A DNA stretch of 64,000 nt from Obrimoposthia wandeli. Its lineage: Eukaryota. The position numbers and the translations under genes are program-made. Shown piece after piece: positions 5,170 through 59,680 of the stretch. Every line of letters starts with the position of its first letter. Within the stretch, counting starts at the first letter, position 1. Location of the stretch: NCBI GenBank assembly GCA_977020255.1, contig CDROCS010001661.1, positions 1 through 64,000 of the forward strand, in the 5' to 3' direction. The notes beneath the pieces were generated by a model. It did no database searches and had not been told where the DNA came from. It was given only the letters and a program-made list of their open reading frames with translations.

Positions 5170-5636
5170 CATTTATTTTCTCAATATTCGATTCAACAGC
5201 CTATTGATAATCCAAATTTATCAATCTCCAAAATCATAAGTTTCCCACTGGAAAATATATTTACACATATCGGTGAAAACGTCAAATATCTGAGTGCAGG
5301 AAACTTTTCAGGTTCAAACATGCATCGTTCTATCATTTTCTCTGTAATTTTATAAAGATTTATTGGTTTCCCAAGATTTTATGAAACTATGATTGATTGT
5401 TTGGTGCAGATTTGAATTCCAAAGAGTAAATTGATCTCATTAAATGGTGTTTTTGCATCCCATAATAAAACTAACTTGAGGGAAACATACCAACTGTTTT
5501 TGATACTGAGAAGACCCAATTTTCTCAACGAGACATTAAACAATGAGGAAGTATAATAAACTGGTATATACGGATTGGCATAAAATGATTCTTCATAACT
5601 TGTTAAGCTTATATTTCTCCAAATACATTTTAGCAT
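5170..5636 (-). pseudogene. TBP-like gene remnant, copy a
   Basis: Translates to ...MGCKTPF...QSIIVS*NLGKPINL...CMFEPEKFPALRYLTFSPICVNIFSSGKLMIL, resembling the TBP YEPELFPGL..IF.SGK motif. It has stops, frameshifts and a deletion across the intron acceptor. Confidence 0.8.
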
Positions 5637-25733: not shown

Positions 25734-25774
25734 TCAAATTTTAGACAGATTCAGTGATAAGATAAATTATGATG

Positions 25775-30050: not shown

Positions 30051-30419
30051 TTACTTTAATTCCTTATAAGATATCTTATCTGCTGGAGATGTATTGATTA
30101 CATGTGTGAATTTCGATTTTAGAAGCTCAGTTTCATCAAACCCGTCATGATAATTTTCAATATTTAATGGATTTACTAAAATCTCGCTCATTGGGGTTTT
30201 GTTTAATTTTTCCACACTAAGTTGGTTAAATCTAGCTCTAAACAAACTATCAAAAAAGGTGGGACATATATGACATTTCCATACTGGGAGCATTAGCTAT
30301 TACGGGTTCTATAAAAGTTAGAGCATTTAAGAAATCCAATCGCTTATTTTCTTCTTTATCGGTTTCTTCAATAATTTCTTCATTTTTCTCTGCTGATGAT
30401 GGTTCACCGAGTTTCTCCA
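30051..30419 (-). pseudogene. Hypothetical protein with one frameshift (MEKLGEPSS...)
   Basis: ATG frame MEKLGEPSSAEKNEEIIEE...MSYMSHLF joins FDSLFRARFNQLSVEKL... across a T6 homopolymer. Confidence 0.4.
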
Positions 30420-30534: not shown

Positions 30535-31026
30535 TTAGGAAAGAATACAAGTTTGAAGATGTTTATTAAATAAAATACATTCAACATGATATTCATATTC
30601 TAGGGTCTTAACCCCAAGTATCATCACCTTCCCGCTCGCAAAAATGTTCACGCATAGAGGATTGTATTTGATATAACGTAGCCCTGGAAAAATTATGGTT
30701 CGTAAACTGCTTCCATTCTCATACTCTTGCTCATCTTACTCAGGTTTATTGGTTTTTCTAAGTACTGACACTGATTGAATTCTCTCGATTTTGATATTGA
30801 ACGGAAGAGTGCTTTCATCTAGCACAGCTTTACACCCCATGATTCGACATGTTCCAAAATTATATTAAAACTTAAATGTAAAATATATTACCAGATTTGT
30901 ACCAGATAGTATAACTATCACACTTGTGTCGGTACTGATGTGGCTTCGAAATGGTAAGTGTTGAATATTGCTTACAACCATTCCCTTGTAATTAATATTC
31001 ACAAATTTGATATTATGAAGTAACAT
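30535..31026 (-). pseudogene. Divergent second TBP-like gene with a 37-nt intron
   Basis: MLLHNIKFVNINYKG...WYKSG|TCRIMGCK...IQSVSV..LEKPINL..YEP*.FPGLRYIKYNPLCVNIFASGKVMILGVK. The intron is 30855-30891 (GT...TG); frameshifts are present. Confidence 0.85.
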
Positions 31027-31141
31027 TTCTGGTTATTATAAACTGATTATTATAAACTAATTCTTATATATTATTTGAAAATCTATTTTTAGATTACAAA
31101 TTATCTCTATAAACAATATTCCGATATTGATTTTTATTGAA

Positions 31142-31330
31142 ATGGATAATCAAGATAGAGCAAGCACATATATTGGTTCTGGTAGTAATTTATATGCTAA
31201 TATGGATTATAATAGAAATAATCATAGAGAAAATATTTATCCAGTAACTGAAACAATAACAAGACCCACGCGCGTAACCGAAGAACGTGAGCCCTTCAAG
31301 GATATGACTAATACGAAGCGATTTACATAA
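31142..31330 (+). CDS. Small hypothetical ORF divergent from the TBP-like gene
   Basis: ATG-initiated 62-aa frame MDNQDRASTYIGSGSNLY..., head-to-head with the TBP-like start at 31026. Confidence 0.3.
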   Translation: MDNQDRASTYIGSGSNLYANMDYNRNNHRENIYPVTETITRPTRVTEEREPFKDMTNTKRFT

Positions 31331-34266: not shown

Positions 34267-35300
34267 AACCACCTAAATATCTTCTAAATCACATTAAATT
34301 TCCTTTCAAAGTTGAATATATCCTATATTTTTTCTTCTGAATCTTATATACATCGCTTTTATTTTCATTCAATCTAGCTATCTAGGCTATATTTATCAAA
34401 ACATCTCTTTTAACCCCTTCAAAGCTTTGATCTGAACCATCTAAACATCATCGTTAAATTTTCCTCTAAATTCATCTAATTTCTTCTGAAACCTCCTGAA
34501 CTCACCGTTAAATTTCCCTCTAAATTCATCTAATTTCTTCTTCTGAAACCTCTTGAACTCCCTGTTAAATCTCCCTCTAAATTCCTTTAATTTCTTTTGA
34601 AACCTCCCCATATAAATTCTCCTCTGAACCAATTTAAGTTATATTTCCTCTTCTGAAACCTCTTAAAATATCCGTTAAATCCTCCTTTAATCTTCTTTAA
34701 GGTTATATTTTCTCTTCTGAACTCCTCGGTTAAATTCTCCTTTGAACCCTTTAGGCTTTAATTTCTTTTCTGAACCATCTAAATATCCCTTTAAATCTCC
34801 CTCTAAATCCGTCTAATTTCCTCTTGAAATCCTCCTTTAAACCCTTTAATTTCCCCTATGAACCAATTTTAATTTATTTTTTCTGAAACTTCTTAAATAC
34901 TCCTTTTAAATACTTCTCTAAAGACCTTTTACGGCTATATTTTCTGATACCTCCTAAACATTCCTGCTAAATCTTTTCTAAACCCTTCAAATCTATAATA
35001 TATCTTCTGAAACCTCTTGAACACTTTTTCAATTTGTCTTTTCTAACCATTCTATGCATTAATATTTCTTCTATAACCTTCTAAATACCTCGTAAATTTC
35101 CTCTTCTATGTAATAAACTTCCTAAATTCTATTCCTAAATCTCTTAAATAAATCACATCAATTTCACTTCATAATCCAATCTAGGCTATATTTTTGATAC
35201 CTCCTAAAAGTATCGTTAATGTCTCCTCTGAACCGCTACTTATCTTTCTATGTATTAATTACTCTTCTAGAGAACCTTTTGAACAAATCGTGAGTTTCTC
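34267..35300 (-). repeat. Inverted copy of the FRRFQK minisatellite
   Basis: ORF 34441-34632 is nearly identical to 27435-27626. Confidence 0.85.
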
Positions 35301-36149
35301 TTCTAAAACTATATCCATTATTTTCTATTCTTAAACCTTATAAACACCCATGTCATATCTCATCTAAATGTAACAAATCTCATGCATCTTCTTTATTTCT
35401 CTTATAGAACCTTTTATGTATAATGTCTTTACTAGACCGATTTATTTGAAGTAATAAATCGACTGGTTGTTGAGGTTTGAAAATAAGTTTCCATAATATT
35501 GATAACATCAATAAGCTTGTAGAGTTTTGCAAGAATTTTCTTGTTTGATATATCGATCAATGAAAAATTATTTTTTTAGAATATAGTTATCAATAGACTC
35601 AAGTAATATGAATAAATTATGACTGAGATAAATACATACTCTAAACATTATTGAATAAATTATATCAATAAATGATACTTGAAAATAATTTTAAGTTTAA
35701 ATGAATCGAAAGAGAGAATATAATTTAATCCATTTCTAGTCCTGATGTAATAATTTCTAAACAAAATGTTCCAATATAGTATTGATATCCGATGTTTACT
35801 AGTGATAATTAAATTAATTATTTATTACATAGATTAATTTCCTTAAATAAGCTAATCTTCAAACAATATTCTTTGAAACTAATCATTTTTTAGTTACAAA
35901 ACTTTTACAGATTATTTTACAAATAATAACTTTTGCAAAAGAAAGTAGAGAACATTTTTGATTTAATGAATCATTTTGAAATTTAATAAAATTCTTAGTT
36001 AAAGATGCAGATTAATAATATACTCTTGATCGTAAATTGACTAATTGATCAAAGTAATCTCTCTAATTATCCGTATAATTGTCCGTAATAAACTCTCACT
36101 TATTGATCATTATATACTCTCTTCAAATTATATCTTTATTACACGGAGG

Positions 36150-37063
36150 AATCCTTTAAATATGTTGAAGAGAAATCCAATTAGTGCATCTACCATATAA
36201 GAAACCATGTAAACTTTATTGACGCGTTGGCACATAAGAATCGTCAGGAAATACAACTTATTTATTCTGAAAGTAATTTTCTCCTTAAACTAAAATCAAA
36301 GAAAATTATAGAAATATGGCTAAATTCATTGAAAAATGATCAATTATTTGCATTATAATTTGCATTATTCTAAAAATCCTTGGTAAATTTATCTTCTAAT
36401 CTATAAATTGAGTGAAAATCGATCTTTCTAATTCGAAATTTACATTATTCAGAAAAATTATACAGTAAATTCATTTGTCAAATAAAATCCTTATAAATGA
36501 TCTAAGATTCAACTTTGCATCTTAATTTACATGATTCTGAAATATACACGATAAAATGCATTCTAAAATCGAACTTTTTATATCCAAATTACAATTTTGT
36601 TCTAAAGTGTCATAATGTAGACGTGCAAGCTACACTGTTGTCTGCAATGATTTTAGATGGATTATTAGACACATTAAAATTTTCTATAAACCATCCTTTA
36701 GCCAATACTGCGATATGCAAGTTTAAGGATGAGAGTAAGCAATGTAGATATAAGCAATGGGTATTTTTACGCTCCAAATCATATAGCTTAGAAACTATAG
36801 ACGGAAAGTCCCATATGAGAGCAATGGGAATTAGCCTTAAGCAGACTGTGCTACGCCATGCGAATTATTTAGCTGCATATGAGAGTGGGGTTAGTGAACG
36901 AGTGCGACAACAACGCATTAGTTCAATTAATAACCAGCTCTATACCGTAAATATGAGTAAGATCGCATTGAGTAGCAATGACGAGGAGAGAAAATGGGTA
37001 GAGAAAAACCGGTCAGTTGTCTATGGACATCATAGATATATAGATTATTTTTCACTTGAATAA
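36150..37063 (+). pseudogene. Polinton protein-primed DNA polymerase B, C-terminal fragment
   Basis: DSEIYTIK (degenerate DTDS.IY), HPL...KFKDE, FLRSKSYS, RAMGIS (KAKGV), KIALSSNDEER (KVALSP.DDKR) and YGHHR, in the order found in Polinton PolB. Confidence 0.88.
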
Positions 37064-37572
37064 TTGTTTTTGTATGTTTGAATTTGTATGTCACAAATTT
37101 ATTGTACCTAATTTTCTCTTTGGTTTAATAAATATTGGTCTTTTTCTAAGTTTAAAATTTTAAAGTATAAAAGTTCTATGTAAAATTATTTTTTTAAACT
37201 ATAAAAATTGTTGTAAAAAATTATGTTGGAAATTTTATTTTTAAACTATAAAAATTGTGTAAACAATTTTATTTAATTTTTAAATTTTTTTGTTTAAAAG
37301 CCATTTTTTTTGGTTAAAAACCATGTTGAAAATTTTTAATGTTGCGCAAAAAAATTGCATCTTATTCAAATAATTTTTGTAATGTTTGTTCGTGCCTAAA
37401 GATCAAGAATGAAGCCCGCCCTGAAGGTTCGGGTGGTGTATGTTAGGGTCTTGGGTATGACACGGGTCGTTTACATGTTGTGAGAGGTAAAGTGATACTG
37501 AAGCGCATGTTTTTGTAGTTATTTTCGCGAGAATGGAGCACGCCCTGAAGGGGCGGGCGGTGGGTGGATGTT

Positions 37573-37784
37573 NNNNNNNNNNNNNNNNNNNNNNNNNNNN
37601 NNNNNNNNNNNNNNNNNNNNNNNNNNNNNNNNNNNNNNNNNNNNNNNNNNNNNNNNNNNNNNNNNNNNNNNNNNNNNNNNNNNNNNNNNNNNNNNNNNNN
37701 NNNNNNNNNNNNNNNNNNNNNNNNNNNNNNNNNNNNNNNNNNNNNNNNNNNNNNNNNNNNNNNNNNNNNNNNNNNNNNNNNNNN
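37573..37784. other. Assembly gap (N run)
   Basis: 212 Ns. Confidence 1.
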
Positions 37785-37922
37785 GTACATCGCAGGGCTA
37801 GTCTGTGACCTATATGAGAGCGAGATATCCGTACATCGCAGGGCTAGTCTGTGACCTATATGAGAGCAAGATATCCGTACATCGCAGGGCTAGTCTGTGA
37901 CCTATATGAGAGCGAGATATCC
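37785..37922. repeat. 46-bp tandem repeat, three copies, abutting the gap
   Basis: gtacatcgcagggctagtctgtgacctatatgagagcgagatatcc x3, with one substitution in unit 2 and no spacers. Confidence 0.95.
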
Positions 37923-37933
37923 GAGGAGTTTCC

Positions 37934-38078
37934 CCCCCCTTGTCTTTTAAAACCGTGCATGTGTGTGGAGTGAAATTTCATTCCACACACCTACACAAAA
38001 TTTCACTCCACACACATGCACGGTTTTAAAGGACAAGGGGGGAGGGGGTGTGGATTAGACCGGACACATACACCTACT
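37934..38078 (-). repeat. Putative Polinton right terminus with hairpin
   Basis: Arms 37934-37978 and 37998-38042 (one mismatch). It ends ...CACCTACT at 38078 and lies downstream of the PolB 3' end. Confidence 0.8.
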
Positions 38079-38119
38079 CATCATAATTTACCTTATCACT
38101 GAATCTGTCTAAAATTTGA

Positions 38120-38515
38120 GGGCTATCGTGCGATTCGCTGATTATTCAAGCTCCAGCTCCTGTTCCAGTTGCAGCCTTTCAACCTGTTTACGGTCCTGAT
38201 ATTGGTCCTTCTCTCCACTCTCCCGAATCCGCTGCTGCCTCATCCACACAAATAACTAACAATGAGTGGATGAACTTCCTCTCCCAAGAAGATTTTGAGG
38301 ACTTGAACATTGACTGGATGGAAAATATCACCCAGTCAGATTTCGAGAGGGAGCAGCCTCAATGGAGCAACAACAGCTGGTTGGGGGACATCTAGGGATC
38401 TGATTTCGTTGAATTAACAGACGACATCTGGATGAATTCTGTCAATTAAGAAGACTTCCAATCAGATACAGTTGGATTGCCTTCATCAAGTTTTATTTTA
38501 TTACGATTTTTTTGA
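38120..38515 (+). pseudogene. Acidic repeat ORF remnant
   Basis: IIQAPAPVPVAAFQPVYGP...EWMNFLSQEDFE-DWMENITQSDFE-SWLGDI*GSDFV-IWMNSVN*EDFQ. Confidence 0.45.
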
Positions 38516-39896
38516 TGATTTTTTACTTTATGAATTATATAAAGTAATGCATAAGTGTTTTTAACTCCCCTCTCATCACCACAAGATACTTAATAATCAT
38601 ATTTAAGACCGTTTAGAACTGAAAATCTCAATGATCGCCCATATAGTGCTCAAATCTCGGAGAGGTAAGTTCACTACATTGATTAATTATTGATTATTCA
38701 AAGTATATGTTAGAGTTAAATTTAAAAGAACATTAAAATAACAAATATTTAAATAACTATCCTTAAAAAATATAAAGCAAATAAATAACAATTGCCTAAG
38801 TTATGCATAAAGTTTATACTAAAATACTTATTAAAATGATATGTAATTAAAATGTTACCCACAATAAAGAAAAATAGTTTTAAAATATTAATTAATTTTA
38901 TGTAAAATTCACCTTTTTACGAATAACCTTTTAAAGAAAGACCTTAGCTCTAAAACTGAACTATTCATAAATGATTAATGAAATATTGATTTACTTCATG
39001 TATGCTCGAAAGTTTTTAAATTTTCATATTAAAAAAGTTCCACAAAAATGTGATTTTTGTTAATTAAAACGTTAATTAATTAAAGTTGAAAGAAGAATTT
39101 CTAGACATCTAAAAGTCGCACATAAATGAACAACTCATCATTTTAAAACATAAATTATTTCCAATTGAAAAATATACGGCTCATCAAAATTACACTTTTG
39201 GGTAAAAACGTCCTATAGTATAAGAAGTACATAAAACTGTACAATACTAACAGGCATACACACTTACTAACGGGTTACCCGATGGAACCTAAGTGGACAA
39301 ATTATCTAGATGACCAAACCTTATTTAGATTAAACTAATCCGAATCAAATTCCCCAACAGAAAGACCCAAGCACTACACAGGAACTAAAAAGAAATTAAA
39401 TTGGTTTTTGGAAATTAAATTCAATAATTTTACTGGACATCCTCCTACGAAGAATACTACAGATAATTATTTTTATTTTTGTGTTATGTTCATGTATTCA
39501 TGTGTTAAAATATTGACATTTTAATTTATGTAACTCTCAGAATATTTAGCCCCCTGGTCATTTTTATTTGTATGTATTAAAATTAAATTACAATTTTTGT
39601 ATTTAATAGAGCCCAACATATACTAGAGATATACTATGAAATTAATTGATAATAAAATATTTCATTTTATAGAATATAATTAGATTAAAAATATTGGGTA
39701 TGCTTCTTTGTACTTTCTTCATTTAAAAAAAGTGCGTCTTTATATTCAGAGCCATTTAAGTTTACTTTTACTTCGAACTACAGACTTGATTAATTTATTC
39801 ACTTTTTATCTTACTGATTCTTTTTCTTGATCTCTTAGGCTTTACTTTTTCTTTGCATTTACGTTTTACTATCAACTTCTTAAAATGCAATGCAAA

Positions 39897-40527
39897 TTAT
39901 TTTTTATAATTTTTTTCTTTTTGTTTATAAACAGTTACTCCCTTAGAATTAAATATATATGTTAAAACACGTAAATCATATAAGCAGGCTTGTGTAAATT
40001 CAATAAATATATATTCATGTGCTTGTTTATCAGCATCATGGAATGAATGAACTAGAAAGTTTTTATTTTGGGTAAAAGCTTGTCTGGCCACGAAATTTAC
40101 AACTGTTTGATCTCTCGAATTTTTAAATAATACTAAGTAATGTATATTAAAATATCTTGATCTATGATGACATCCTTGATGAAAAAGATTTTGAGTGATA
40201 AATATATCTGTTACTTCACGATGTCTTGCAATCTTTGTAAATAAATTATTAAAGTCCGATTCCTTGTTAGCTTCTTGATACTAATCATCAATAATTAATA
40301 TATTTTATTTCTTCAATCTTTCGCACAAGTCGTATCAAATCCTTCAATAAATATTATTACCTTCAACTTGCAAACTTCTGTTTGGTCTATTCTACTTTCC
40401 CCTCCTCCACCATGATACTAAAAAATATTTTTAAAACTGGAATTGGAAATAGTTTCATTTTGTAACAATTTCCTGGGATCCACTTTCCACTGGGATCAAC
40501 TATTTGAAATACGGTATTTTTATTCAT
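39897..40527 (-). pseudogene. Polinton packaging ATPase remnant, copy b
   Basis: Same motifs as copies a and c. Confidence 0.85.
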
Positions 40528-40554
40528 CTTCTTTACATATAGACTTTCATATAA

Positions 40555-41020
40555 TCATTTATTTTCAATATTCGATTCAACAGCCTATTGATAATCCAAA
40601 TTTATCAATCTCAAAATCATAAGTTTCCCACTGGAAAATATATTTACACATATCGGTGAAAACGTCAAATATCTGAGTGCAGGAAACTTTTCAGGTTCAA
40701 ACATGCATCGTTCTATCATTTTCTCTGTAATTTTATAAAGATTTATTGGTTTCCCAAGATTTTATGAAACTATGATTGATTGTTTGGTGCAGATTTGAAT
40801 TCCTAAAGAGTAAATTGATCTCATTAAATGGTGTTTTGCATCCCATAATAAAAACTAACTTGAGGGAAACATACCAACTGTTTTGATACTGAGAAGACCC
40901 ACTCTTCTCAACGAGACATTAAACAATGAGGAAGTATAATAAACTGGTATATACGGATTGGCATAAAATGATTCTTCATAACTTGTTAAGCTTATATTTC
41001 TCCAAATACTTTTTAGCATT
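40555..41020 (-). pseudogene. TBP-like gene remnant, copy b
   Basis: Duplicate of 5170-5636. Confidence 0.8.
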
Positions 41021-41184
41021 CAAAACGAAAAAATAAATTCATTTCAATAAAATTCCTGCGACAATTGAGGATATTTATAGATTTATTTTCAACCAATACA
41101 TTATTACAAAAAAATATTTAGATACAATTGAATTTTCCGAACAGATAATACATAATTTTAATACAAAATTTATCAAATCATAGA

Positions 41185-42054
41185 ATGGATTCATGTATCA
41201 TTTGTACTGGAGAGCTAGAGGATGGTGAAGTTTGTGTGACTGAGTGCAGACACTATTTCCACACCGAGTGTCTCAAGGTATGGATGCTAGTCAACTGTAG
41301 CTGTCCATTTGAACGAAATGAATTGCAGTACATCTTCATTTGTCAAAATGGCACTGAGAGCCGAGTTAGTGTGGCCACACTTCTGCGGAAAGAATGGGAA
41401 GGATTGTGCAGAGAGATTGTGGAGGATAGTAAAGCGAAGTGTTCGGTCTTGTATGAGGTGCTGACGACCCAGATGGTGCTGACCCATGAATTTCTAGAAT
41501 TAGCTGCACAACAACGGGATCACGGACCGACACTGGAAAAGTGGTTCCATTGTCTTTCGTATTTATGCAACACTATGCAAAGCTTCGAGGATGAGTTCAC
41601 AGAAAACTTCATCAAGGTCCTGGAAACAGAACAGAATTCAGAAGGCTCTGACAGTCTGGAGTCGTCTTTGAATTGCATGAAAGATGTGCAAGAACAGCTG
41701 TTATCTCTTGTACACATCTGCAGCGTGTTAGGGGCCATAGGTGGCGATTTGGACCGGGTCCGATCTTTGTGTCAAGATTTAGAACTACTGGTCGACATCA
41801 CACGGGAAGGTGTAGTCGATCTCAAGATCTACTTCCTCACGACGAAGCTGCCAACTCAGCTGAGAGGTAACATGAAAATAGTGCTTTTTGGAAGAGCTTC
41901 AATGCAGCATTGTGCCATGTGCCGAGAAGAAATCGTTGATGTTGAGCGACTCCACGAGAGCCCCAAGACCTTAGGTATTTGTGGCCACAGGATCTGTCAC
42001 AACTGCACCCTAGAATTACACGAGTTGGACATATTTTGTCCACATGAAAATTGA
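41185..42054 (+). CDS. Twin-RING protein (N-terminal RING-H2-like, C-terminal RING-HC-like), putative E3 ubiquitin ligase, intact copy 3
   Basis: 289-aa intronless ORF: C-x2-C...C-x-H-x2-H-x2-C...CPFE and C-x2-C...CGHRICHNC...CPHE, joined by a predicted helical linker. E3 activity is inferred from RING family knowledge. Confidence 0.9.
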   Translation: MDSCIICTGELEDGEVCVTECRHYFHTECLKVWMLVNCSCPFERNELQYIFICQNGTESRVSVATLLRKEWEGLCREIVEDSKAKCSVLYEVLTTQMVLTHEFLELAAQQRDHGPTLEKWFHCLSYLCNTMQSFEDEFTENFIKVLETEQNSEGSDSLESSLNCMKDVQEQLLSLVHICSVLGAIGGDLDRVRSLCQDLELLVDITREGVVDLKIYFLTTKLPTQLRGNMKIVLFGRASMQHCAMCREEIVDVERLHESPKTLGICGHRICHNCTLELHELDIFCPHEN

Positions 42055-44469
42055 ATTCTTTTGACAAGTACCAAAAAGGCTTTGTTTTTTAATAAATTTA
42101 GTAATCTTTCTAAAATTACTTTGTATAAAATTACTTTTAATATTATTAAATTGAACAAAGGCAGTTATTTATTTTAATATAACATTATAAATAACATGCT
42201 TTTAATTTTTTTATTAACAATATTTACACTTCAAACCTTTAACTAACCATGTAGTACAGTTGGCGTCCACAAAATGTAAGAATACAAGTTGATTTAATCC
42301 ACTCAATGATGCTGGAGGGGATTTGAGTGTTTTATTTTACACTGCAATAAAAGCCGTTACAATATTTGTTCTATCTGAAATACAAATGAAAAAAACATTA
42401 GGAAAGTGAGAACATACTAACTATTCATTTTTTTATATTTAATACTTGATATATTAATAATGTTAAAAATAAACTATCTTATTTAAACTTTTTAGATTTT
42501 TTTATTAAATTTTAAATCTAGTGAGGATACAAGTTAAGGGTTATGGAATGCTGGCGGGTAATTTTAATACTTTTACCATTTTTTAATTAATTTTTATTAT
42601 ATTTGAATTTTTATTATTGAAATATTAATTAACTAAATTTTAATTAATTAAAATTTTATAATACATATCCGTTTAATAATATAATTTTATTTAAATACAC
42701 AAATTAATATATTATATATTTTTACTAAAAAATAATGTTAAATAATCAAACATTACCGATAAAACTTTTTCTAAAGTGGGAAAATAATGAAAAATTATAA
42801 AAACCTAAATATAAATAGAGAATAAGATTGGATCAAGTAACGAACACCGAGAAAACACTGCATTTTAAGTATTCAGGGTCTGAAACAGTATCATCAAATT
42901 TTAACAGATAGTTTCCGCTAAATAAAATCCCTTTTAAACCAATTAAGCTCTCCACAATTCAAATGCGGCAGATAGATCAAAAAGTATTATTAGTACGCAT
43001 TTTTCATAGTTTAAATATTTTAATACATTTTATACTAAACAATGCCATTTTAGTTCAATGATAACTTCTATAAGCTGTTTGGCAAATACATAAACACATT
43101 CTTTTTTAAGTAACTGATTAATTGTTTCAAAACTTATTTTTCAAGAACTTTCAATAAACATTAAAAGTTTAAATTGTATTTACAAATTGATAAATTGGCT
43201 TTGTGCGCACACAAAACATAATACCGAAAATGATTGCATAATACCACAAGGATGGCCTGTCACACTATTAGCATTACAAAGACGATTAACTTTAGATCAA
43301 ACTTTTCGATGGTTTCACTGATTTCTGTCAGTGAATGAAATGTCAATTCCAGTCAACTATAATAGTAAATAAAAAAAATGCCTGTTATCAGTAATGAGCA
43401 AATATTTATTGAAGGTGACTACTGAATTTTGACGGGTATTGCATAGAGAACATTAAAATTCTAGGTAGTGTACTAAAAAAATAAATTGCAAAAGTTATAA
43501 CTTAATCTTAAAAAATATCAAAGATCATTTTATTTGTAATAAAAACCAATTCAAAATTTTTTCTAACAAACCATAAAACACTAAGTTAAATAATCAACAA
43601 TGAAATTTGACATTTTGAATATATAACGGTCACTGTCTTTCAGTAAATTGAATATATTTATTTGTATACTTACTTTCACACATTTTTAATTTTTAGACAG
43701 TGCAGTAACAAAGTTTCATATGGGTAGCTACCCAGCCATCTCATGGCTTTATTAAATATTAGTAGATTGCGATGTGTTTCAAGGTATGCAAATATGATTA
43801 TAGATAATGGTAAAAAATTATACTTCCCCAAGGCTTTTCCGCGTGAATTCTAAATATTGCCGAATTGAGACAGAAGAAACGATAGAAAAACGTTTAACTA
43901 AATATTTATCTTGTTGTTATTATTGATTCATTTCTGACATGTTTTAAAAACTTTTCAAAATTAATTTTGTAAGATGTAGGGGAACTCAGAATAACTTGGC
44001 ATCATATTATTCTAGAGTATGAAATATATACCAAAAAAGAATTAAACATTGGGTAAAAGTAGTGCCAAAGACGTTTTGCAGAAAATCTGAAAATTACATT
44101 TTTAAAGAAAAATATAAATAACATTTCAAAGTAAAAGTTTTTATTAATATTTAACTGACATATACTAATATATATCGTAACATTAAATTGTTTTTAAGAT
44201 TATTTTATTCTCTTTTCTAAGGTTTGTGATATATTTTAGATTAAAACTGTAATATTATGCAATTTAGACTCGTCTTGCATGATAAAAAGTTTTCCTCGAA
44301 AGAAAAATCAGATACAATATGAAATTCTTTAAAACGCGATAGATACTAAATTCTAGGACATTATATTGAGGAGTTTGGAAAAAATATGTATATGTTCTAA
44401 ATTTGATTGAGGATATACCAAAATTGTCTCTCATAAGATTGAGACTATTGCTGATCCAATTTTCAAAAT

Positions 44470-46420
44470 CTAGACGACAAGCAATGCAATTAGAAATCCA
44501 ATTTGATGAAAGGATGAAAGTCATTCGAACCTTCATTGGTCATTGTAAAGAAACCAGACAATACAAATCGAATGTGTGTTGACTACAGCCAATTATATGA
44601 TGTAACCAAGAAGTTTACATTTTCAATACAAGATGCACAACTCTTGTTCGATTGTATAGGTGATGAAAAAATATTTACGACACTAGATATTGGACAAGCT
44701 TATTACCAGGTAGATCTAGAGAAAGAATCTCAGACAAAATCGACTCTCAGTACAAAACTGAGACAATTTTATTTCAGTTGGTGGCCATTTGGGTTGGCTA
44801 CAGGACCTGCCACATTCCAGAATCATACATAGAAATTCTAATGGATTGCTGTTCAGAAGAAAAATTGTATATCTGGATGATATCCTTGTCTATAGTAACA
44901 ACCAAGAAGAACATTATAAATTATTAAGGGAAGCATTCAAAAGAATTGCAGCTGCAGGTCTCAATATAAACCCTAATAAACGCTACAATGATCAGAAACT
45001 GTTAAAAGCCATAGGTCATACGATAACACAAAGCTAAATACATATAAATCAGTCTAAAGTCAACGAAATTATAAATTTCAAAGAACCCGACTGTAAGGGA
45101 AACTATGATCATACTTAGGAATGACAAACTATTATCGACGATTTATAAAAGTTTATGCCAATATTGCAGTCCCACTATGTCACAAGGCAATCATACTAGA
45201 CTTTTCCAGGTGAAATAAAACATTTATAATTTTAACAGATGCCAGTTTTGGTGCGATTTGGGGCAATATTGTGCCAACTGAATGAAATGAGAAACAAAAA
45301 AGTGATTGCATATGCTTCAAAACATTTGACTTTTCATGAGAAAGAATATTGTGTTACCAGAAAGGAACTTTTAGAAGAATACTAATTTAATATGTATTTC
45401 AAACAATATTTATATGGAACAGAATTTTTTGGAAAGAACATATCATAAATCGTAAGTGTTTTTAAGAACAACAAAAATTTCAATCAGTCCTCAATTTCAA
45501 ATATTACTGAAAGTTTATCAAAATTTAATTTTAAGTTAGAACATCGTAAAGGTATTGACCATGGTATTGCCGATGGCTTGTTAAGATTGAATGAAACCGA
45601 CTGCACTCAGTGCAAAACTAAACATATATATGCACAAGAGAAGATATCTAAAATACAATATATTCACTCACTAAATGAAGACAACTTCTTCAGTAAGATA
45701 AGAAAAATACAACAAGAATATATTCATGTGAAAGAAATGAAAGTGTGCATTTAATTATAAAGTATAGATTTATCAGAAGAATGCAAAATAAATTGGATTT
45801 AGCAGATAAAAGAAACACTTAAACTCTGCGATGATATCTTTTATTTTGAACATAATTTTACAGATTTAATAGTCATACCTACGAAAACGCTTATGAAATT
45901 ATTAATAACATTTATCAATATCTTTGTCATCTAGGAATGCATAAGGTTTATAAATATATGAAATATAATTTTATTTTGGAAAGAATAATTCAAAAATAAA
46001 ATAAATAAGTTGAATTTTTAGATCAAATGCTTGTCGATACAGCCCACATGAAGGAAGGATGATCTAAAAAGAAATATATGTCGATAGTAATCGATCGATT
46101 TAGTAAACTGGTATTACTATTAATAACTACAAAATAAGATGAAATAACAATTACTAAAGAACTCATAGACAAATTGAATATATACATTTGGGAAACCTAA
46201 AAGCATTTTAATAGATATAGGACGAATATTTACTGGAAATTATTTTCAGAATTAGCGACGAAAATTTGGTATGTTCAATACAGCTCTTAATCAAAGTAAC
46301 GGTCTGGAAGTAAGAGTTATACACACATTAAGATATATGATGGTTAAGACAAAAGTGTCTACTAAAACAGGAAAATGCGGGTTGGATTTTACTCGGCATA
46401 TTTGGTTGCAGATAATGACG
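44470..46420 (+). mobile_element. Ty3/Gypsy pol remnant (duplicate of 9100-11050)
   Basis: Same RT/RH/INT motifs; LGTGPATFQ-like RT motif (WPFGLATGPATFQ) is in frame here. Confidence 0.92.
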
Positions 46421-47156
46421 AGGAATAATATTTGTGAGAGTCTAGTGCTGTGAAAATAGATGATAGTGAGCCTCTATGGTATCCCATTAAAGTGTATGTA
46501 GAGAAAGAGAAGAGAGCGGAGGAGAAGGAGAAACCTAGAATCGAAGATTTAGATCAAACTGAAGGAGAGGCAGCAAAAGAGGACAATGTAAATAATTTTT
46601 GCATATATATATATATTTTTAAAAAATAATAAGTAATTTTTACTAACAAATATTTTAATTAATTCTCTCTCATTTGATCGGGTAGAATTAAGTCAATTGT
46701 AACAGTTATTGTAAATAATGAAACATTTTGAAGATTTACGGTAGCATTAGGCGATAAAGTAAATGACGCGATTATAAGCGCTACTAGAATAGGTCAAATT
46801 TTAGACAGATTCAGTGATAAGGTAAATTATGATGTTATAAGCACTACTAGAATATGTCACCGGTATAATATAGATACTATTTATACAAATCCCGGAATAT
46901 TTTTAGGAACTAGAGAGACAAGAGTGTCTTTTAGTCATTGCTCTTTGGAAGAAAGGGTGTTAGTAGAAAAGCTTGCGGAAGCTCGTTTTCCTCATTTTCC
47001 CCAATTGACTAATTTAAATAGTACATTTTCTGCAACCAATATTTTAGGGAATAAAGATAAAAAGGTAAAAGTAAATACCTTCATTAAGCCTAACCTCAAG
47101 TCGTGTTTTTTAATATAGAGCAAAAATATCCGTGTGATTGAGTACATGGAGAGGTG

Positions 47157-47900
47157 TAGTTGGAAGGATATACGTGGAAAGGTAAGATACTCTGGGAGTA
47201 CTGGTTGGAATCGGAAGGGAAATGCATAAGACCAGACGACGTTATTAAGAGCGGTGCAAACGTCAGGGTAACACCAAAATTGAAAGATGACATGGAACAT
47301 GAGAAGAATATAACTAAGTTGGATATAATACTAGCAGGAGAAGAGTGGTCAGATTCATGTAACACTAGAGAAGATACAGATTAAAGAAAAGAGTATAGAG
47401 ATATCGTACGAAGATTTGGTGAACAAAATAATAAGGAATTGGAGCAGGCGCTGGAGTAAAAAGAACAACTCGAGATAATGGAAATAAAAAGTGACATTGC
47501 AAAGATAGAAAGAGAATTTGAAACTAGAACCAAAGAAGAGTCAAGCTATGTGAAAGAAGAAGTCAATAGATAAAAGAAGTCAGACAGAAACGTTTTAAAG
47601 GGTCGGAAAAAGATTAGTATTCCATACTTCTTTGGTGATTATAAATATTATGAGAGTAGGCGGGCAATATTTGATACTGTCATCGATCAGACCGATGCAC
47701 CAAGGCAAGAAAATAATGCTGCAGCTGATGGAGGTTCACGGATGCAAGTTACGATAAAGCTTTAAGATTGCTAGAAGAAAGATACGATGGAAGGGAAAGA
47801 AATTAAAGAGGTTTATTGGATGAAATTTAAATGTTTAGAGTGATAAGATGGGGAGAAGACCAAGATCTGGATGCAATTTTACAATTAATAAACAAGATAA
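47157..47900 (+). mobile_element. BEL/Pao gag remnant (duplicate)
   Basis: Copy of 11790-12530. Confidence 0.7.
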
Positions 47901-48326
47901 TACTATTTAAAGCACATCCGCTTGTGGTAATTCGTACACCAACGAAGGCCGAGTCAGCGGACAATGGAAGCGGAGGCACCATAATTTTCACAGAAATCAC
48001 GATAGGCATATAAGTTTTAGATGTTTTTGAAGAATATTTTAACATAGTTCGAGTTAAAAATGAAAATATATTTTGGGATAAAATTAGACTGAAGAACGAT
48101 CCATAGAGTAAACATGATCTGATAGAGGTAAATAAATATTAATTTGGAATTCAGCATGTTCGAATCATATATATAAACTTTAAAAATCCCACAACAGAAG
48201 AAGGTTTTCAAATGTGAGCCAGTAATAGTTATTTGTATTAAATTTTTGTATATTTAATTATTGTAATTAATTTAACACTTTATAATTTTTTTTATTATAA
48301 TTTTAAAGAAAATAATAATTTTAGAA

Positions 48327-48364
<38 letters not shown>

Positions 48365-48799
48365 CAATCGTACTTGTACTTGAAAAATTAATTACATAAA
48401 ATGATACATTATCATGAAGTGGTCGCAGTGACCCCATGCTAATAATGAAGTAGAACACAGGTGTATATCACTTTTAATATTAGTTTAATTTGAGTAACAT
48501 TGGTTGTTAGCTGGTAATTATATCAACAGTTACTAAACTTGTAAGCTTTAAACTGTATTTAGCGATGTTTTTAAAACAAACCATTTTAATTAGTTTATTA
48601 TCAAAACAAGCCAGGGTAATCAGATATGGGGTTTTTTTCATCCATAGATGAAAGGGTCTGGCTCAATTATAACTTGACGGTTTGAAGGTATGGTTGGCCA
48701 ACATATCCAAGGGGTTGAGGTCGTCTATATATGAAGGGGTAGGGATCAGTTACGACTTGAAGTTATATTTGATGTCATCTTAATTTTTAAAATTTATTT

Positions 48800-49660
48800 A
48801 AATCTGAACTTTAAATTTTACTGGGATATTTTTCTCCAATATTCTCTGATATATTCTCCAACAGTATCAAATTAACAATATTTCCTACCTTTTTCTTTGA
48901 TTTATATGCAATGTATATGTAGGAATTTTTATAACATAAATATATTTTTCTTTGATGACGGCATCATTGTATCAAAGTACATTAATCCTTATATTCGGAT
49001 TCTTTGTCTCAAACTTTAATATATTTGAAATCTTCATTGGCATATCTGTTTCGTCAAACATCAAATCTTTCAAAACTGGTGAATACTTTCATACAAGAGT
49101 TGTATGATTAGTAATCTCACCATGTTTCAAATCAGCCAGAATTAAATAAATAAAACACAGATTGTCATTGTTTTGAAAACTTACAATAGCTTTACTTTTT
49201 TATAACGATTTTTGTGTTGGAATGTTTGAATGTCCAGATAATGCAGATCTTTCACTATATTTCGTTATGACAAATACATAGTCTAAAACTTTTATTAATT
49301 TCCATCCACTTCATTTTCGGAATATTCTTCAACTCTCTTATCCATAGTTTCTTCGATTTCAGGCATTTTTCATAAATAAATATGACCGCCTTATGAGACC
49401 GTTCTCCTTTTTTAATTTCATCCGTATAAAGTATTGAATTTTTGCATTGCCCATATTATTCATTATTTCTGCTACTTTAAATAGAAGATTATTCGGAATT
49501 TTTAAATCAATAAGATCTAGATGAGCAACTTTCATTGTCGAAGCCGGAACTGCGATTGGAGTCAAATCATAATTTAAAGCTATAGTCGGAATTGAATTTA
49601 AAAATCTTTTTTCTACTTATAAATGCTATTAAATAATGTTTTCTATAAAATTCTTATAAT
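48800..49660 (-). pseudogene. Polinton PolB N-terminal fragment, copy 3
   Basis: Copy of 13440-14300 with local sequence differences near 48840-48960. Confidence 0.85.
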
Positions 49661-49695
49661 TATCCAGTTCTGTAGTTGAACAATATGGACAAATA

Positions 49696-50486
49696 TGTTG
49701 GGAATGAAAAAAATTGAGTTATTTATGATGGGTTAATTAGTGGAAAAGTTAATTAATTGTTCCCTTAATTGAGGGGCGATTGGAGGGGTTATATAGATGC
49801 ACTTTGGCATTTTTGTTTTCCTTCAGTCCCTGACCGGCTTAACCGGTTTCGCCCTGCCGGCTCGTCGGGGGGACGGCAGATTTATCTCTAGCTTCGCGGT
49901 GGGCAAAATGCCAGCGAAGTCAGAGATAAAAAAGAAAAACAGATTAGAAGAAAAACACTTACCTGCACAAAGTCGTTCAGGTTTCACAGAACCACCTCCA
50001 CTACCGCGATCTGCCTTGGCGCGGGAAGCAGAACTCCGGACCTTCTTCCACATCTTCATCGCTCGGCAACCTCCGCTGTCCAGACCGCCTTCATCGGATG
50101 CAGTCCTGTTTTCTCTTCTTTCAACAGCGGCAGTCTTCTGCATGTTTGTGTGTCTCCAAAAACAGTTACAGCACAAATCGATATCTCCTTATCTCTGCCT
50201 TTTGCACTCTGTTAACTGAGCATTTACTGCTGACTGTATGCAGGTGATCAGTTGCTATAAATAGCAACATATTTTTGGATTCGTGACACAAACAACTATA
50301 ATAATTATTATCATTGCTTTGACAATTTACAGAACCGTATTGGAAATAAAAAATTGCATTTTGATTTTTGTTGTTGAATTTATCGCATTTTGAGTTATAA
50401 CAATTTCATTGGGAAACAAAACGATTGGAGTTGATATAATTTTGGAAACATAGAGTTTTGAATTTATTGAATTCGGAGATATAACA
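49696..50486 (+). mobile_element. 791-bp solo LTR (duplicate)
   Basis: TGTT...AACA ends with AATA TSD, at the same site as 14334. Confidence 0.85.
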
Positions 50487-51787
50487 AATATAATACATGT
50501 CTTAACGATATTTATACCCATAATATTGTTGTATTTTATTGTGACATTTTTCTAAATTCAAATGTTGAAGTTCTTGACAATGAGATGGATATTACGCTAA
50601 TTGCGCTAGATAACAAACTACAAAGAAAGTATTAGGTTTGAAAACTGTTCAATTATCTAGTAATTAAAACTATAATAAAGAAATACAATAAAGTTTATAA
50701 ATAGTATTAAACTAAACATTGAGAATATAATTGTCGTTTTTATCAATTATTTAATTGTCTTTTATTACAAAGTAGACAATATCTAACAAATTAATTCACG
50801 TACTATTTTATATTGACAAAAGAATCATTGTTGAAAAGGATTAATACACAGATTAACCAGAAGATATATGGAGAAAATAGTGTTTTACTGATAATAAGCA
50901 TTTTAAGCTGACCAAAAAATTATTTGTTATTTATATACTATTTTTAAAAAATATTTATTTAACATTAAGAGTACATGATATAAGGTTTTAGTGAAATAAA
51001 TCAGTGGCTTCAGTATGGGGAGTATAGCAATATGATCTGGGAGGTGATCACAAGTTAGTTGGTCGAGTGAAATTTAAGGACATGTTAAACATATTTGTTG
51101 TGAGATGCATTAAATTATAAAGATTTTTTATTATCACAAGAGGTCTTTCAGAATATGTATACCAATATGATTAGAAGTTTAGAAGATAATGCAGTTTTTG
51201 TCAACGGGATACTCGGAATTGTATTAACTAATTTTTCCAGAGACTTAAACCAAAAAACTTAAAGAAATAAGTGAAGAAAATTATAAAGCTGAAAATACAT
51301 TTTTAAGTAAATTATATTGTTATTTACGAAAACTCACGAAATAATTATTACAAAATTTTGCTACACTACAATTATTCCATTCTGCTTATTCGAACAAACA
51401 CACAACATTGATAATTGCACTAAACTAGAATTTTTAACATTCAATTTTTGTAGGAAATATTTTAAGGGTTTTCTGATATTGTTTTTTTTCGATTATAAAT
51501 TTTTCCCAATATGTCAAATGTTTTCTTAAATTTGTCATTCTTCAATTTTTTTTAATAAATAGCCTAGAAAGACTTTCTCTACCCTTTTGAAGGCCTAGAA
51601 AATATACATTATTATACACTACAAGATTAGTAATTAAAATTGTAGTTCCTAGATTTCTGTGGTAAATGTAATGATGATAGTGGTGAAAAATATTTTTGTT
51701 CTGGATGCCAAAAAAGATTATCACCAGATTTTATTAAATAAAGAGAGTAGGAAATATGTGGTGTTTGGTGAATAATGTAAAAGAACT

Positions 51788-52210
51788 GTTAAATGTTTAG
51801 GAGATATGTTACGTGCCGACGGATTGAGACCTACGAAAGATAGATGTGATAAATTGAAAGCATATCCAACACCAAAGAATCACAATGAATTTAGAAGTGT
51901 TTTAGACTTAGCAGGATATGTGGGTCAGAAGTTATCTAAAGGCTATTCGGAATTAGTTGGAGATTTATGGGATATTATGAAGAAAGATGTTTATGTATGG
52001 AAAGACAGCCATGAATCTCAGTTTATAAAATTGAAACATGAATTATCAATTATAAACCCTTTGAAAATATTTAATAATGAGTTAAAGTGAAACTTAGAAC
52101 AGATGCAAGTGACTATGGGCTCGGTGCTGTTCTATTACAAGATAATCAACTTATTATTTATGTCTCACGAAAATTAAATGACACGGAAATAAGGTACTCA
52201 CAAATATAAA
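51788..52210 (+). mobile_element. Gypsy RT connection/RNaseH fragment (duplicate)
   Basis: Copy of 16420-16845. Confidence 0.88.
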
Positions 52211-52703
52211 CTTGGCCAATGTTGAATAATAAAAGTAAGCCTTGGTTTTATTGATTTGGTAAATTTAATGGTTATGCACACCTAACTTGGCCAATGCTAA
52301 ATAATGAAAGTAAGGATTGGTTGTATTGATTTTTTAATGAGACCAAAATATGTGGTAATTGTGATGATGATAGTGGTGATGGTGGGTGATGGTGGGATGA
52401 TAATGTGTAGTGGTAATAATGATAAGTTTATTATTATTTTTGTTATAGAATTATAATAATCCATTCCATGGATTATGAGTTTGAAATCCTGGGTGACATG
52501 CCTAAATAATTATGATTATAATTATTGGAGTATTTTTTAAAGTTGAATTTAAATCAATAAAGTTGTTAGTGGCTTATGATTTAAAGCTCTTTCAGTGTCT
52601 TATACGATAAATTGTCTACACTTGTCTACTTATGATAATCTATGCTTATGTGACCTTCAATTGAAAGCACAATAATTTCATAGATATTATATGTCTGCTC
52701 ATG

Positions 52704-52797
52704 AGTAGGTGGATATGTCCGGTCTAATTCACGCCATCCTCCTACCGCCGGAGGGCTACCACTGTCATTTAATACCGTGCATGTGTGTGGAGTGAAA
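52704..52797 (+). repeat. Truncated terminal repeat copy (duplicate of 17336)
   Basis: AGTAGGTGGATATGTCCGG...GGAGTGAAA. Confidence 0.7.
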
Positions 52798-54043
52798 AAA
52801 ATCTATACATGTCAAATGTTATTGATGTTCTTTTGCAGTAACCTGCAACACTCATAGAAGAGAGACCAAACGCATTAGAAAGTCGAAAACCAATATTCTA
52901 CATTCTACGGAGACATTAATGGAACATTAAAATAAACTTCCTTATCCTATTATTGAGGAAAATTTTAATATATTTAATAATATTTTTTATCTAAATATTT
53001 TATAATATTTAACAATTCTTTATTGCATGGTCCTTCAAAGGTAACTGAGGAGACTTGGCGATAAATTTCTCCTTTCTCGCGGAAACGGGTAAAGCGAGCA
53101 GATGTGCAGAAAACGAAGCGCTCCAAAAGTGTATCACCGCAATGTTCAATTCTAGAGAAGCAGTGATTGATCATGGACTGGGATGAAGCTGGATTGGACG
53201 AATTGCCTGCAGAACTGGAGAATCCGGAACCGACAATGCTTCCAGATTCGCGAGGGCAGCAGGATGCGGTCTCACGTCAGCTTCAGCATGAGAAGGAGAA
53301 ACTGAAGAAAGCTTCGTGGAAGAGGAAGGCCATCAGGTCATCAGGAGATTCTCCCATTTCCAGTGGACTACGGGCCAATTTTGTTCGAGAGGATACCAGT
53401 CTCTCCAATCGAGATTAGTCCGCCTCACAGTCAACGATGTCTGCAGGAGACAGAACCGGCTCCATTAAGCACCAGGTAAAATTTGGCCAGGGCTTGGGAC
53501 ACTGCTATCCCTCTGCCAACAGCATCTACCTGCCAGAACTTGAAGAGGGTCTGAGATGAAGCTAGATTAGATATTACGGTTTTTGGTATTTTTTAAGATT
53601 AAGTTATAACTTTTGCAATTTAAATTTTTTTAGTACACTACCTAGAATTTTAATCTTTTTTATGCATTACCTGTCAAAAGGCTGCACCATTGTGTACACT
53701 GTTCCAAAAAACCAAGATGATATGTGGAAAAAGTCATTTCAAAGACGTTATATGCACTGCTAAGTTATTAAAATAACAGAAAAATGATGTATGTAACAAA
53801 TTCTTTATATTTTAGTTATTTATGGTATTGATTTCTATATTTCGTTAAAGTTTTAAACTAAGAAAAAAACGACAAAAATTCAGTAGTCACCTTCAATAAA
53901 TATTTGGTATTTACTGATAACAGACATGTTTTTATTTACTATTATAGTTGACTGGAATTGACATCTCATTCACTGACAGAAATAAGTGAAACCATCGAGA
54001 CGTTTGATATAAAGTTAATCGTCTTTGTAATGCTAATAGTGTG

Positions 54044-56442: not shown

Positions 56443-56619
56443 TCTATGATTTGATAAATTTTGTATTAAAATTATGTATTATCTTTTCAGAAAATTCAAT
56501 TTTATCTAAATATTTTTTTGTAATAATGTATTGGTTGAAAATAAATTTATAAATATCCTTAATTGTTGAAAGAATTTTATTGAAATGAATTTATTATATC
56601 GTTTCTGAATACTAAAAAG

Positions 56620-57120
56620 TATTTGGAGCAATATAAGGTTAACAAATTATGAAGAATAATTTTATGCCAATCCGTATATACCAGTATATTATACTTCCTC
56701 ATTGTTTAATGTCTCGTTGAGAAGAGTGGGTCTTCTCAGTATCGAAACAGTTGGTTTGCTTCCCTCAAGTTAGTTTTTATTTTATTTTCATATTGAATTT
56801 TTTAGGAAGTTGTCGTGTTATGGGATGCAAAACACCATTGAATTAGATCAATTTACTCTTTGGAATTCAAATCGGCGCCAAACAATCAATCATAGTTTCA
56901 TAAAATCTTGGGAAACCAATAAATCTTTATAATTTTACAGAGAAAATGAAAGAACGATGCATGTTTGAACCTGAAAAGTTTCCTGCACTCAGATATTTGA
57001 CGTTTACACCGCTATGTGTAAATATATTTTTCAGTGGGAAACTTATGATTTTGAGATCGATAAATTTGGATTATCAATACGCTGTTGAATCGAATATTGA
57101 AAATAAATTATTATATGAAA
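56620..57120 (+). pseudogene. TBP-like gene remnant, copy c, with intact 37-nt GT-AG intron
   Basis: ETVGLLPS|(R)SCRVMGCK across intron 56769-56805, then FEPEKFPALRY..PLCVNIFFSGKLMIL; in-frame stops are present. Confidence 0.85.
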
Positions 57121-57137
57121 GTCTAGATGTAAAGAAG

Positions 57138-57768
57138 ATGAATAAAAATACCGTATTTCAAATAGTTGATCCCAGTGGAAAGTGGATCCCAGGAAATTGT
57201 TACAAAATGAAACTATTTTCAATTCCAGTTTTAAAAATATTTTTTAGTATCATGGTGGAGGAGGGGAAAGTGGGATAGACCAAACAGAAGTTTGCAAGTT
57301 GAAGGTAATAATATTTATTGAAGGATTTGATACGACTTGTGCGAAAGATTGAAGAAATAAAATATATAAATTATTGATGATTAGTATCAAGAAGCTAACA
57401 AGGAATCGGACTTTAATAATTTATTTACAAAGATTGCAAGACATCGTGAAGTAACAGATATATTTATCACTCAAAATCTTTTTCATCAAGGATGTCATCA
57501 TAGATCAAGATATTTTAATATACATTACTTAGTATTATTTAAAAATTCGAGAGATCAAACAGTTGTAGATTTCGTGGCCAGACAAGCTTTTACCCAAAAT
57601 AAAAACTTTCTAGTTCATTCATTCCATGATGCTGATAAACAAGCACATGGATATATATTTATTGAATTTACACAAGCCTGCTTATATGATTTACGTGTTT
57701 TAACATATATATTTAATTCTAAGGGAGTAACTGTTTATAAACAAAAAGAAAAAAATTATAAAAAATAA
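57138..57768 (+). pseudogene. Polinton packaging ATPase remnant, copy c
   Basis: 57370-57768 is one frame with a single stop: IIDD*YQEA...LFTKIARHR..IFITQNLFHQG....NIHYLVLFKNSRD...VARQ...HGYIFIEF...LRV. Confidence 0.88.
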
Positions 57769-58321: not shown

Positions 58322-59680
58322 AGGAATGCAATAGCGTTAGTGTGTGACATTTCAAAGATGTATTTACATATGAAGGTATGTAAGGAAGACCGCCCATGGC
58401 TAAGGTTTTTAGGGAAAAATAGAGAGAACCTGAGGGATATGTATGAATTTCAGAAAGTAGTCTTTGGAATAAATGCTTCGCCGTTAATGGCTCAAATCGT
58501 AACCCAAGTAAACGCAGATAACTTTAAGGTATGGCGCAGTAGTATACATGCGTAATGAATACGCAGGCAAAGTGACTATGCGATTGATAATTTAGACTTA
58601 GAAGAAATACAGTCAGATTAAGAGAAAAAGAAACGGTACAAGGAAGTAACAATGTTCATACAGGAAGATTGAAAATAGAGACTTATTCCGACTTAACGAG
58701 ATTGAAGAGAGTCTTAGCTGGGATACTAAGATTTGCACGAAATATAAAGTTACCTCAAAATCGCAGACTTGTAGGCGAGCTGAAAATGGATGAAGTGGAA
58801 AAAGGGATGCAGTTGTTGATAAAGCATGAACAAATTCAGTATTTCTGCAAGGAATACCAACGGTTAATAAAGAAGAAAGAGATTGAGATAACAAGCTCAT
58901 TATTAAAGTTGAAACCGTGGGTTGATGAAATAGAAATAATCAGAGCCAATACCCAAATTATGAATGCGGTGTTTTTAGATAATGACACAAAATATCCCAT
59001 TTTGTTATCAGAAAAGAGTTGGCTGACTAGATTAATCATAAAGGATACACACGAGAGGTTACGGCATTACGCCAGAGTACAGAATATACCGAATGAGAGC
59101 CAAAAGAAATATTGGATTCCTAAAGTACAAAGAGTAATCAAAGAAATAGAGCGAGAATACTTCGACTGCAATAAAGGTAAAGTCGCAGGGATCGTCAAAG
59201 ATATGGCTTCCTTGCCGGCATTCAGATTCGAAATACCGTTAAGGGCCTTTGCAAACGTCGGAGTGGATTTTGCAGGACCATTTATCACAAAGGAAGGACG
59301 TGGAATAGTGAGGACTAAGATATACCTTTGCCTTTTACATGCTTACAAACGCAGGCCATTCATTTAGAGATGGCTTATGGTTTGGATATCGATGGGTTTA
59401 TTAGGGCATTAAAATAATTTATAGGAAGAAGAGGGAGACCACAAATGATAATATCGGATAATGGCACAAATTTTTGTAGGGGCGGTGAATGAAGTGAGCG
59501 AATTGATACGGGATGGTTATCAGATTCAAAAGGAGTTAGTAAAGGAGGAGATACGTTGGGTCTTCAACCCACCACATGTACCACATTTTGGAGAGGTCTT
59601 TGAGATCATGATAAAATGTGCCAAAAGGGCTATATACCGGATACGAAGAGGAAATAACGTAAGTAAAATAACATATTGTT
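58322..59680 (+). mobile_element. BEL/Pao pol remnant (RT fragment plus integrase)
   Basis: CDISKMY...WLRFL...VFGINASP (Pao RT), KYPILL, NVGVDFAGPF, SDNG, W.FNPPHVPHFG.VFE.MIK. Confidence 0.92.

Follow-up and report, generated by a model that had tools for sequence, protein, structure and literature searches.

TBP-like genes of the window and their state

The stretch of DNA analyzed here, referred to as the window, comprises 64,000 nucleotides of a contig of the Obrimoposthia wandeli genome assembly and contains two TBP-like genes, A and B, each interrupted by a 37-nt insert (Table 1). TBP-like matches were obtained by tblastn for both A and B, and the Pfam profile PF00352 matched exon 2 of A with an E value of 3.2e-7. 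Both inserts split the codon that precedes the x-C-R-[IV]-M-G-C-K motif of the gene. An initial annotation, made from the window alone, had proposed two 37-nt phase-1 introns at these positions, the one in B with a mutated acceptor; position, length and phase were confirmed for both, the A insert having GT..AG ends and the B insert a GT donor and a TG end.

Table 1. Positions of the two TBP-like genes, further A copies and adjoining genes in the window
Feature	Position	Strand	Remarks
Intron of TBP-like gene A	56769..56805	+	37 nt, GT..AG, phase 1; GTTAGT...TTTTAG
Exon 1 of gene A	56649..56768	+	decayed, start approximate; alignment to family copies good over last ~20 nt only
Exon 2 of gene A (second TBP repeat)	56806..57116	+	in-frame stops at 56844 and 56901
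Broken packaging ATPase gene	57139..57750	+	start approximate; immediately 3' of gene A
Intron of TBP-like gene B	30855..30891	-	37 nt, phase 1, GT donor, acceptor without AG; GTAAT...TTTTG
Exon 1 of gene B	30892..31026	-	frameshift near 30945
Exon 2 of gene B	30538..30854	-	stop and out-of-frame stretch mid-exon
Accessory-gene remnant	30075..30345	-	in fuller B-type elements this gene follows TBP-like gene
Second A copy	40588..40859	-	donor at 40859; 38-nt genomic deletion takes 3' part of intron and start of exon 2
Third A copy	5217..5475	-	donor at 5475; deletion of same kind as in second A copy

The annotation had further placed both inserts in the same S-G codon of an F.SG.CR.MGCK motif. 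The same codon is indeed interrupted in both genes, but the motif does not hold to the letter: the base before the donor of window copy A is A, so that the split codon specifies Arg rather than the Gly encoded with G in other copies, and window copy B reads W-Y-K-S-G where its sister copies read F-K-S-G. Similarly, removal of the insert restores the reading frame only locally: elsewhere, A has a decayed exon 1 and two exon 2 stops, and B has a frameshift in exon 1 and an out-of-frame stretch with a stop in exon 2. The window copies of A and B are dead derivatives. They had been called paralogs, a description that is replaced here: each of two Polinton/adintovirus element families has one TBP-like gene, A in the one and B in the other, and the two are not paralogs inside one element.

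Exon 1 of copy A (56649-56768) is diverged from its family far more than the adjoining intron and exon 2, and copy A may be chimeric, with a 5' part that is older than its 3' part. Near-identical A copies were also present on contig C1208. Sequencing reads of one sample (four runs) were aligned to 56600-57200 and to a family C copy, whose intron zone was passed over as a repeat; the reads looked like DNA, with flat cover between genes, and were uninformative on expression. Among the joints listed for these DNA-like reads (15 of 28), none lay at 56769-56805, and the sole listed joint across this interval was a 38-nt deletion that is likewise found in the assembly.

Element context and predicted protein

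In the window, A adjoins the broken ATPase gene and B the accessory gene, polymerase-type fragments lie nearby, and long inverted repeats are present; no rve integrase was found within the window. In fuller elements outside it, the TBP-like gene is accompanied by an A32-like ATPase, an integrase-chromodomain gene, two capsid-type genes, an adenovirus-type protease and a long polymerase-type frame, and the core genes were continuous frames in the elements examined. The proposal that the TBP-like gene is Polinton-borne is thus upheld, since Polinton genes adjoin it in these elements. An rve integrase (PF00665, E = 3.1e-12) and a chromodomain (PF00385, E = 2e-4) were identified in L096, and an integrase also in the metagenome Polinton L071; Pox_A32 (E = 1.4e-6) and Peptidase_C5 (E = 9e-4) were matched in metagenome contigs. 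Homologues of the ATPase, protease and capsid genes stand in order in contigs C299 and C1732, and the window has the ATPase alone. The capsid genes are presumed to be such from a weak Capsid_N match (E = 0.0035) and gene order. A 917-residue stretch, the candidate for a protein-primed type B DNA polymerase, has PolB-type motifs read by eye, and endonuclease VII was the only Pfam/PHROGs match to the polymerase-type frame. Members of the uninterrupted family in the same genome have an ATPase neighbor at 13 of 20 loci.

Several further features of these regions were recorded. An IAP-like gene adjoins the TBP-like gene in families C (L096:8414-9316, minus strand) and B2 (L226:3762-4280), with a BIR in both and additionally a RING in family C; a dual-specificity phosphatase gene (L066:3975-4316) lies near the TBP-like gene of an intronless-type metagenome contig. 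Elements of two different families are directly adjacent at both L098-L099 (G000:C1732) and L096-L097 (G000:C299). The window itself contains a 13-kb near-identical direct duplication (4395-17520 and 39777-52888) and nested kilobase inverted repeats (24603-39250). Fragments of other elements, namely reverse-transcriptase pieces, a RING-finger ORF and an integrase zinc-finger-like ORF, are interleaved with Polinton pieces at 9147-9557, 44518-44832, 41149-42054 and 58591-59367.

The TBP-like protein is ~146 residues long. A predicted model of an intronless metagenomic relative (pLDDT 93.9) matched TBP chains with an E value of 1.5e-9 and a TM score of ~0.7, and also matched viral TBP-like models. 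On the strength of this model, the product is predicted to have the TBP fold; binding of promoter DNA is putative. The protein resembles cellular TBP (PF00352) and the TBP-like proteins of large DNA viruses in its Pfam match and modeled fold but differs in its length and in a first repeat that, in the model, has the strands without the long helices. The intron site maps to a predicted surface turn between strands 35-39 and 43-49.

Copy number, length and ends of the intron across the genome

Searches covered the whole 1.35-Gb O. wandeli assembly. The acceptor form of the motif was found at 8,057 places and the uninterrupted form at 111, with 0 matches to the reversed control pattern in each case, and the acceptor form is thus more frequent than chance would give. 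Protein searches of the genome with A and with B returned at least 150 matches each. Intron-bearing copies belong to at least four families: A, B with three sister subfamilies, C and E.

Intron length was assessed in the 30 acceptor-form matches that come first by contig order; a donor was recognizable in 27. The lengths were 35 nt (three), 36 nt (three), 38 nt (ten), 39 nt (eight), 40 nt (two) and 42 nt (one), giving a mode of 38-39 nt, and introns of 30, 32 and 41 nt occurred in other copies. Copies of the A family have the intron at the same site with lengths of 26-40 nt (16 of 30 loci called, three of the calls being wrong or doubtful). The claim that a length of exactly 37 nt has been conserved is not borne out, given that genome lengths span 30-42 nt and none of the 27 unselected introns is 37 nt long. 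Since the lengths spread within a narrow band, the equality of A and B at 37 nt is a coincidence.

An intron ending in AG was found in 78 copies of the B family. Twelve of these were fetched, and the donor was recognizable in seven, six with an intron of 37 nt and one of 36 nt. By contrast, all 30 copies nearest to window B end in TG, so B represents a genuine intron of 37 nt, and one subfamily has lost its acceptor. These 30 copies (L031-L060) lack the acceptor AG and also share the exon-1 frameshift. That all 30 are broken in the TBP-like gene indicates that this subfamily spread after the breakage and is likely a non-autonomous derivative.

GT..TAG ends were present in eight of eight family representatives, with interiors of 75-95% AT; one family E copy has a GC donor. 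The suggestion that the intron sequences of A and B are strongly diverged holds, the alignment of their interiors being at shuffle level (1,059 of 2,000 shuffles scored as high). Family C introns (L093-L095 and L129-L156) range over 30-42 nt through gain and loss of a TTAG repeat, which places several AGs close to the acceptor.

Evidence that the insert is an intron

All three classes modulo 3 are represented among the intron lengths, the flanking exons being open, and introns whose length is a multiple of three contain an in-frame stop. Both exons are under purifying selection, with dN/dS values of 0.03-0.12 in the B-subfamily pairs that have unsaturated synonymous sites; synonymous sites are saturated between A, B, C, E and L071. 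All 120 best protein matches of the profile search are contiguous at the motif. Among 23 metagenome loci (18 of viral type that cover the site, one that does not cover it and four cellular TBPs), 17 of the 18 covering viral-type loci are uninterrupted. None of these contiguous homologues carries a translated insert of 12-13 residues at this site, which supports an intron, as had been proposed. Proteins P0003 and P0005 begin just after the intron site. The protein search favors full-length, that is uninterrupted, matches, some of which may derive from transcripts, and intron-bearing relatives are therefore undercounted by it.

Taken together, these data provide good support for the insert as a real intron. 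From sequence features, the TBP-gene inserts are likely U2 spliceosomal mini-introns, and their removal, likely by the host spliceosome, would be expected on the same grounds.

The residue after the split Gly (Ser/Asn/Thr/Ala as against Lys/Arg) was considered as a mark of the intron lineage. It looked diagnostic in 36 rows but was rejected, as Asn, Ser or Thr occupies this position in 22 of 120 uninterrupted proteins.

Host introns and host TBP genes

Host introns were obtained by spliced alignment of 11 myosin-gene regions on nine contigs, in which 85 introns were called and 37 passed the flank filters. Of these confident introns, 19 form a short class of 36-61 nt with a median of 48 nt, which places the viral intron at its low edge. 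The shortest host introns (36, 39, 40 and 40 nt) have the same donor types as the viral intron, two measured host TBP introns are 47 and 48 nt long, and viral introns of 30-35 nt are shorter than any host intron seen. The description of the insert as host-style is accordingly apt in part: it lies inside the host short-intron range, but below the host median, and it does not occupy the position of any host TBP intron. A myosin tree set the host on a long branch near nematodes, a placement that is unreliable, and the host is treated here simply as an animal.

At the viral intron site, no interruption was seen in the two host TBP genes or in three TRF-like loci, and the host TBP introns sit before YEPE and after VLTG. 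Cestode TBP introns are described at the same YEPE and VLTG positions, away from the viral site, in the part of the source consulted (PMC13134418). The two host TBP genes (L084 and L085, G000:C238:871798-873993) are arranged head to head ~1.2 kb apart and agree in both of their core intron positions. Divergent TBP/TRF-like host genes were also found as a near-identical pair with an uninterrupted core (L086 and L087, on G000:C60 and C1092) and as a gene split by a long intron (L088 and L090, G000:C968).

Phylogeny of intron-bearing and intronless genes

Trees were built from ~145 columns with a protein sample biased to uninterrupted genes. A quick tree of 153 rows grouped the 13 intron-bearing rows of this genome with SH support of 87. 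In a careful tree of 108 rows, from which 45 distant or redundant rows had been removed, the same 13 rows came together at 72/79 and in 69% of 200 bootstrap trees. Earlier-branching rows were intronless in every tree, which implies that the intron arose inside the viral family. It is thus likely that the four intron-bearing families (A, B, C and E) form one clade nested among intronless relatives, with modest support. No grouping with ordinary host TBP paralogs unlinked to Polintons was found.

Within this clade, A and B were joined at 89/84 and C and E at 99/86 in the 108-row tree, and A and B again at 87/89 in one smaller tree. A 36-row two-exon tree did not join A and B, and the base was open in the smaller trees. 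The groupings of A with B, together with the saturation of synonymous sites between them, agree with the claim that the intron predates their split.

One metagenome Polinton, L071, encodes a TBP-like protein, a RING protein, an ATPase, an integrase and capsid-type proteins, and its TBP-like gene has a 40-nt GT..AG phase-1 intron in the same codon. L071 grouped with the intronless row L067 at 91/88 in the 36-row tree and, in the 153-row tree, fell within an 11-row clade of which the other ten rows are intronless. In separate scans, viral contigs yielded no close relative: one scan gave 0 of 27, and another returned 11 distant matches (24-38%).

Origin and persistence of the intron

The reading that best accounts for these observations, and that we consider reasonably probable, is that the inserts at this one fixed codon are likely U2 mini-introns that descend from one intron, likely gained in the viral line. 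That the gene family is mostly intronless points to gain of the intron in that line. The TBP-like gene would have long been intronless until an ancestral element, in the nucleus of a short-intron host, gained an intron in the Gly codon of the beta-turn F-x-[ST]-G, presumably by insertion into a proto-splice context. Expression of the gene would depend on RNA polymerase II and the spliceosome of the host. Families A, B, C and E would all have received the intron by descent, with GT, TAG and a length above the host minimum retained by selection as the interior drifts.

Polinton-type elements copy DNA to DNA, so that nothing in their cycle would remove the intron. Of the 111 uninterrupted matches, 100 were listed and read by eye, and none of these has codons typical of A, B or C; such a lack of precise-loss copies among the matches listed is what would be expected if no step involves reverse transcription. 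Most likely the intron is a passenger that the element tolerates, although it may have a role in expression.

A tentative alternative, clearly less probable, is that introns were gained in parallel at a hot spot, a ready-made proto-splice site, at least once in the families of this genome and separately in the lineage of L071. L071 has its intron in the same codon and yet groups with intronless rows, it joined the other 13 intron rows in none of 200 bootstrap trees, and CAG|GT is already present at the site in many uninterrupted copies. The separation of L071 in 200 of 200 bootstrap trees means that one gain may not cover all cases. Nevertheless, an AU test did not reject a single clade of all 14 intron rows (p = 0.203 with 36 rows and p = 0.379 with 108 rows), L071 is a long branch, and a gene of ~440 nt would be unlikely to gain an intron twice in the same codon unless insertion were strongly biased.

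Less likely again is an older single gain in the ancestor of a larger subclade, from which the intron was later lost precisely several times, with L071 as a co-heir. The codon, phase and size range shared by L071 are consistent with this, as are a largely unresolved ingroup and a monophyly that the AU test does not reject. Set against it, 88 of the 102 subclade rows are uninterrupted, and precise loss, of which the listed uninterrupted matches contain no A, B or C example, would have to recur in elements without a known RNA-to-DNA step.

Arrival of the intron with the gene from a cellular TBP is very improbable and largely refuted: the predicted TBP fold and the example of nematode Mavericks that carry host genes with introns (10.1101/2022.07.12.499685, seen in part) would fit such an origin, but the compared TBP introns, those of the host and of cestodes, lie elsewhere, and the earlier-branching viral rows are all intronless. 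That there is no intron at all, but a translated insert, a recoding site or translation of exon 2 alone from the Met of C-R-x-M-G, is hardly credible, because the position of the site at a surface turn of the model is outweighed by the spread of lengths over three frames, the in-frame stops, the equal purifying selection on exon 1 and exon 2, and 0 of 120 best protein matches with an insert.

Relation to known elements and significance

The elements resemble Polintons/Mavericks of adintovirus (eupolintovirus) type (PMC8502044; 10.1101/697771; PMC8097293) in the gene set of their fuller copies, the putative polymerase included, with each of these genes as a continuous frame; they differ in one accessory gene with a conserved intron. 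The initial annotation's premise that Polintons are intron-poor agrees with the account of intact vertebrate Mavericks as lacking introns in the text seen of Barreat and Katzourakis (PMC8097293). TBP homologues are named in adintovirus figure legends by Starrett et al., the available text of which mentions no spliceosomal intron (PMC8502044, 10.1101/697771).

Nematode Mavericks, as described in the available part of the report, have intron-bearing cargo genes, wasp and KRMA, that are interpreted as taken from the host with their introns (10.1101/2022.07.12.499685). The present elements are similar in combining intronless core genes with an intron-bearing accessory gene. Unlike wasp and KRMA, the TBP-like gene belongs to an old viral-type family that is mostly intronless, and its intron occupies no host TBP intron position. 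Introners have been described in a quarter of the viral elements (eupolintoviruses) of four dinoflagellate genomes, according to the excerpt consulted (PMC12166617), and these are likewise spliceosomal-type introns inside Polinton-like viruses. In contrast to introners, which are young transposon-derived insertions, the TBP intron is old, short, AT-rich and confined to one site, and it has been kept across families saturated at synonymous sites, with interiors that do not align between families.

In the literature searched, the passages of main text consulted contained no report of this intron in a Polinton TBP-like gene, those of PMC10748475, PMC12220804 and 10.64898/2026.07.28.741278 included. 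Introns in Polinton-type elements have precedent, and the TBP intron refines this picture without overturning it.

If the parallel-gain reading were true, a small DNA virus with intronless core genes would have gained introns independently in separate lineages, and the intron might be a splicing-dependent control point or a host-range mark on a viral transcription factor. The intron would imply that prokaryote-style gene callers truncate the TBP-like gene, and that its expression relies on nuclear RNA polymerase II and on splicing by the host. Intron gain in a gene that was ancestrally without introns, where uninterrupted copies survive in the same genome, is useful for the study of intron origin and persistence, as ~8,000 intron-bearing and ~100 intronless places are available in one assembly together with environmental relatives.
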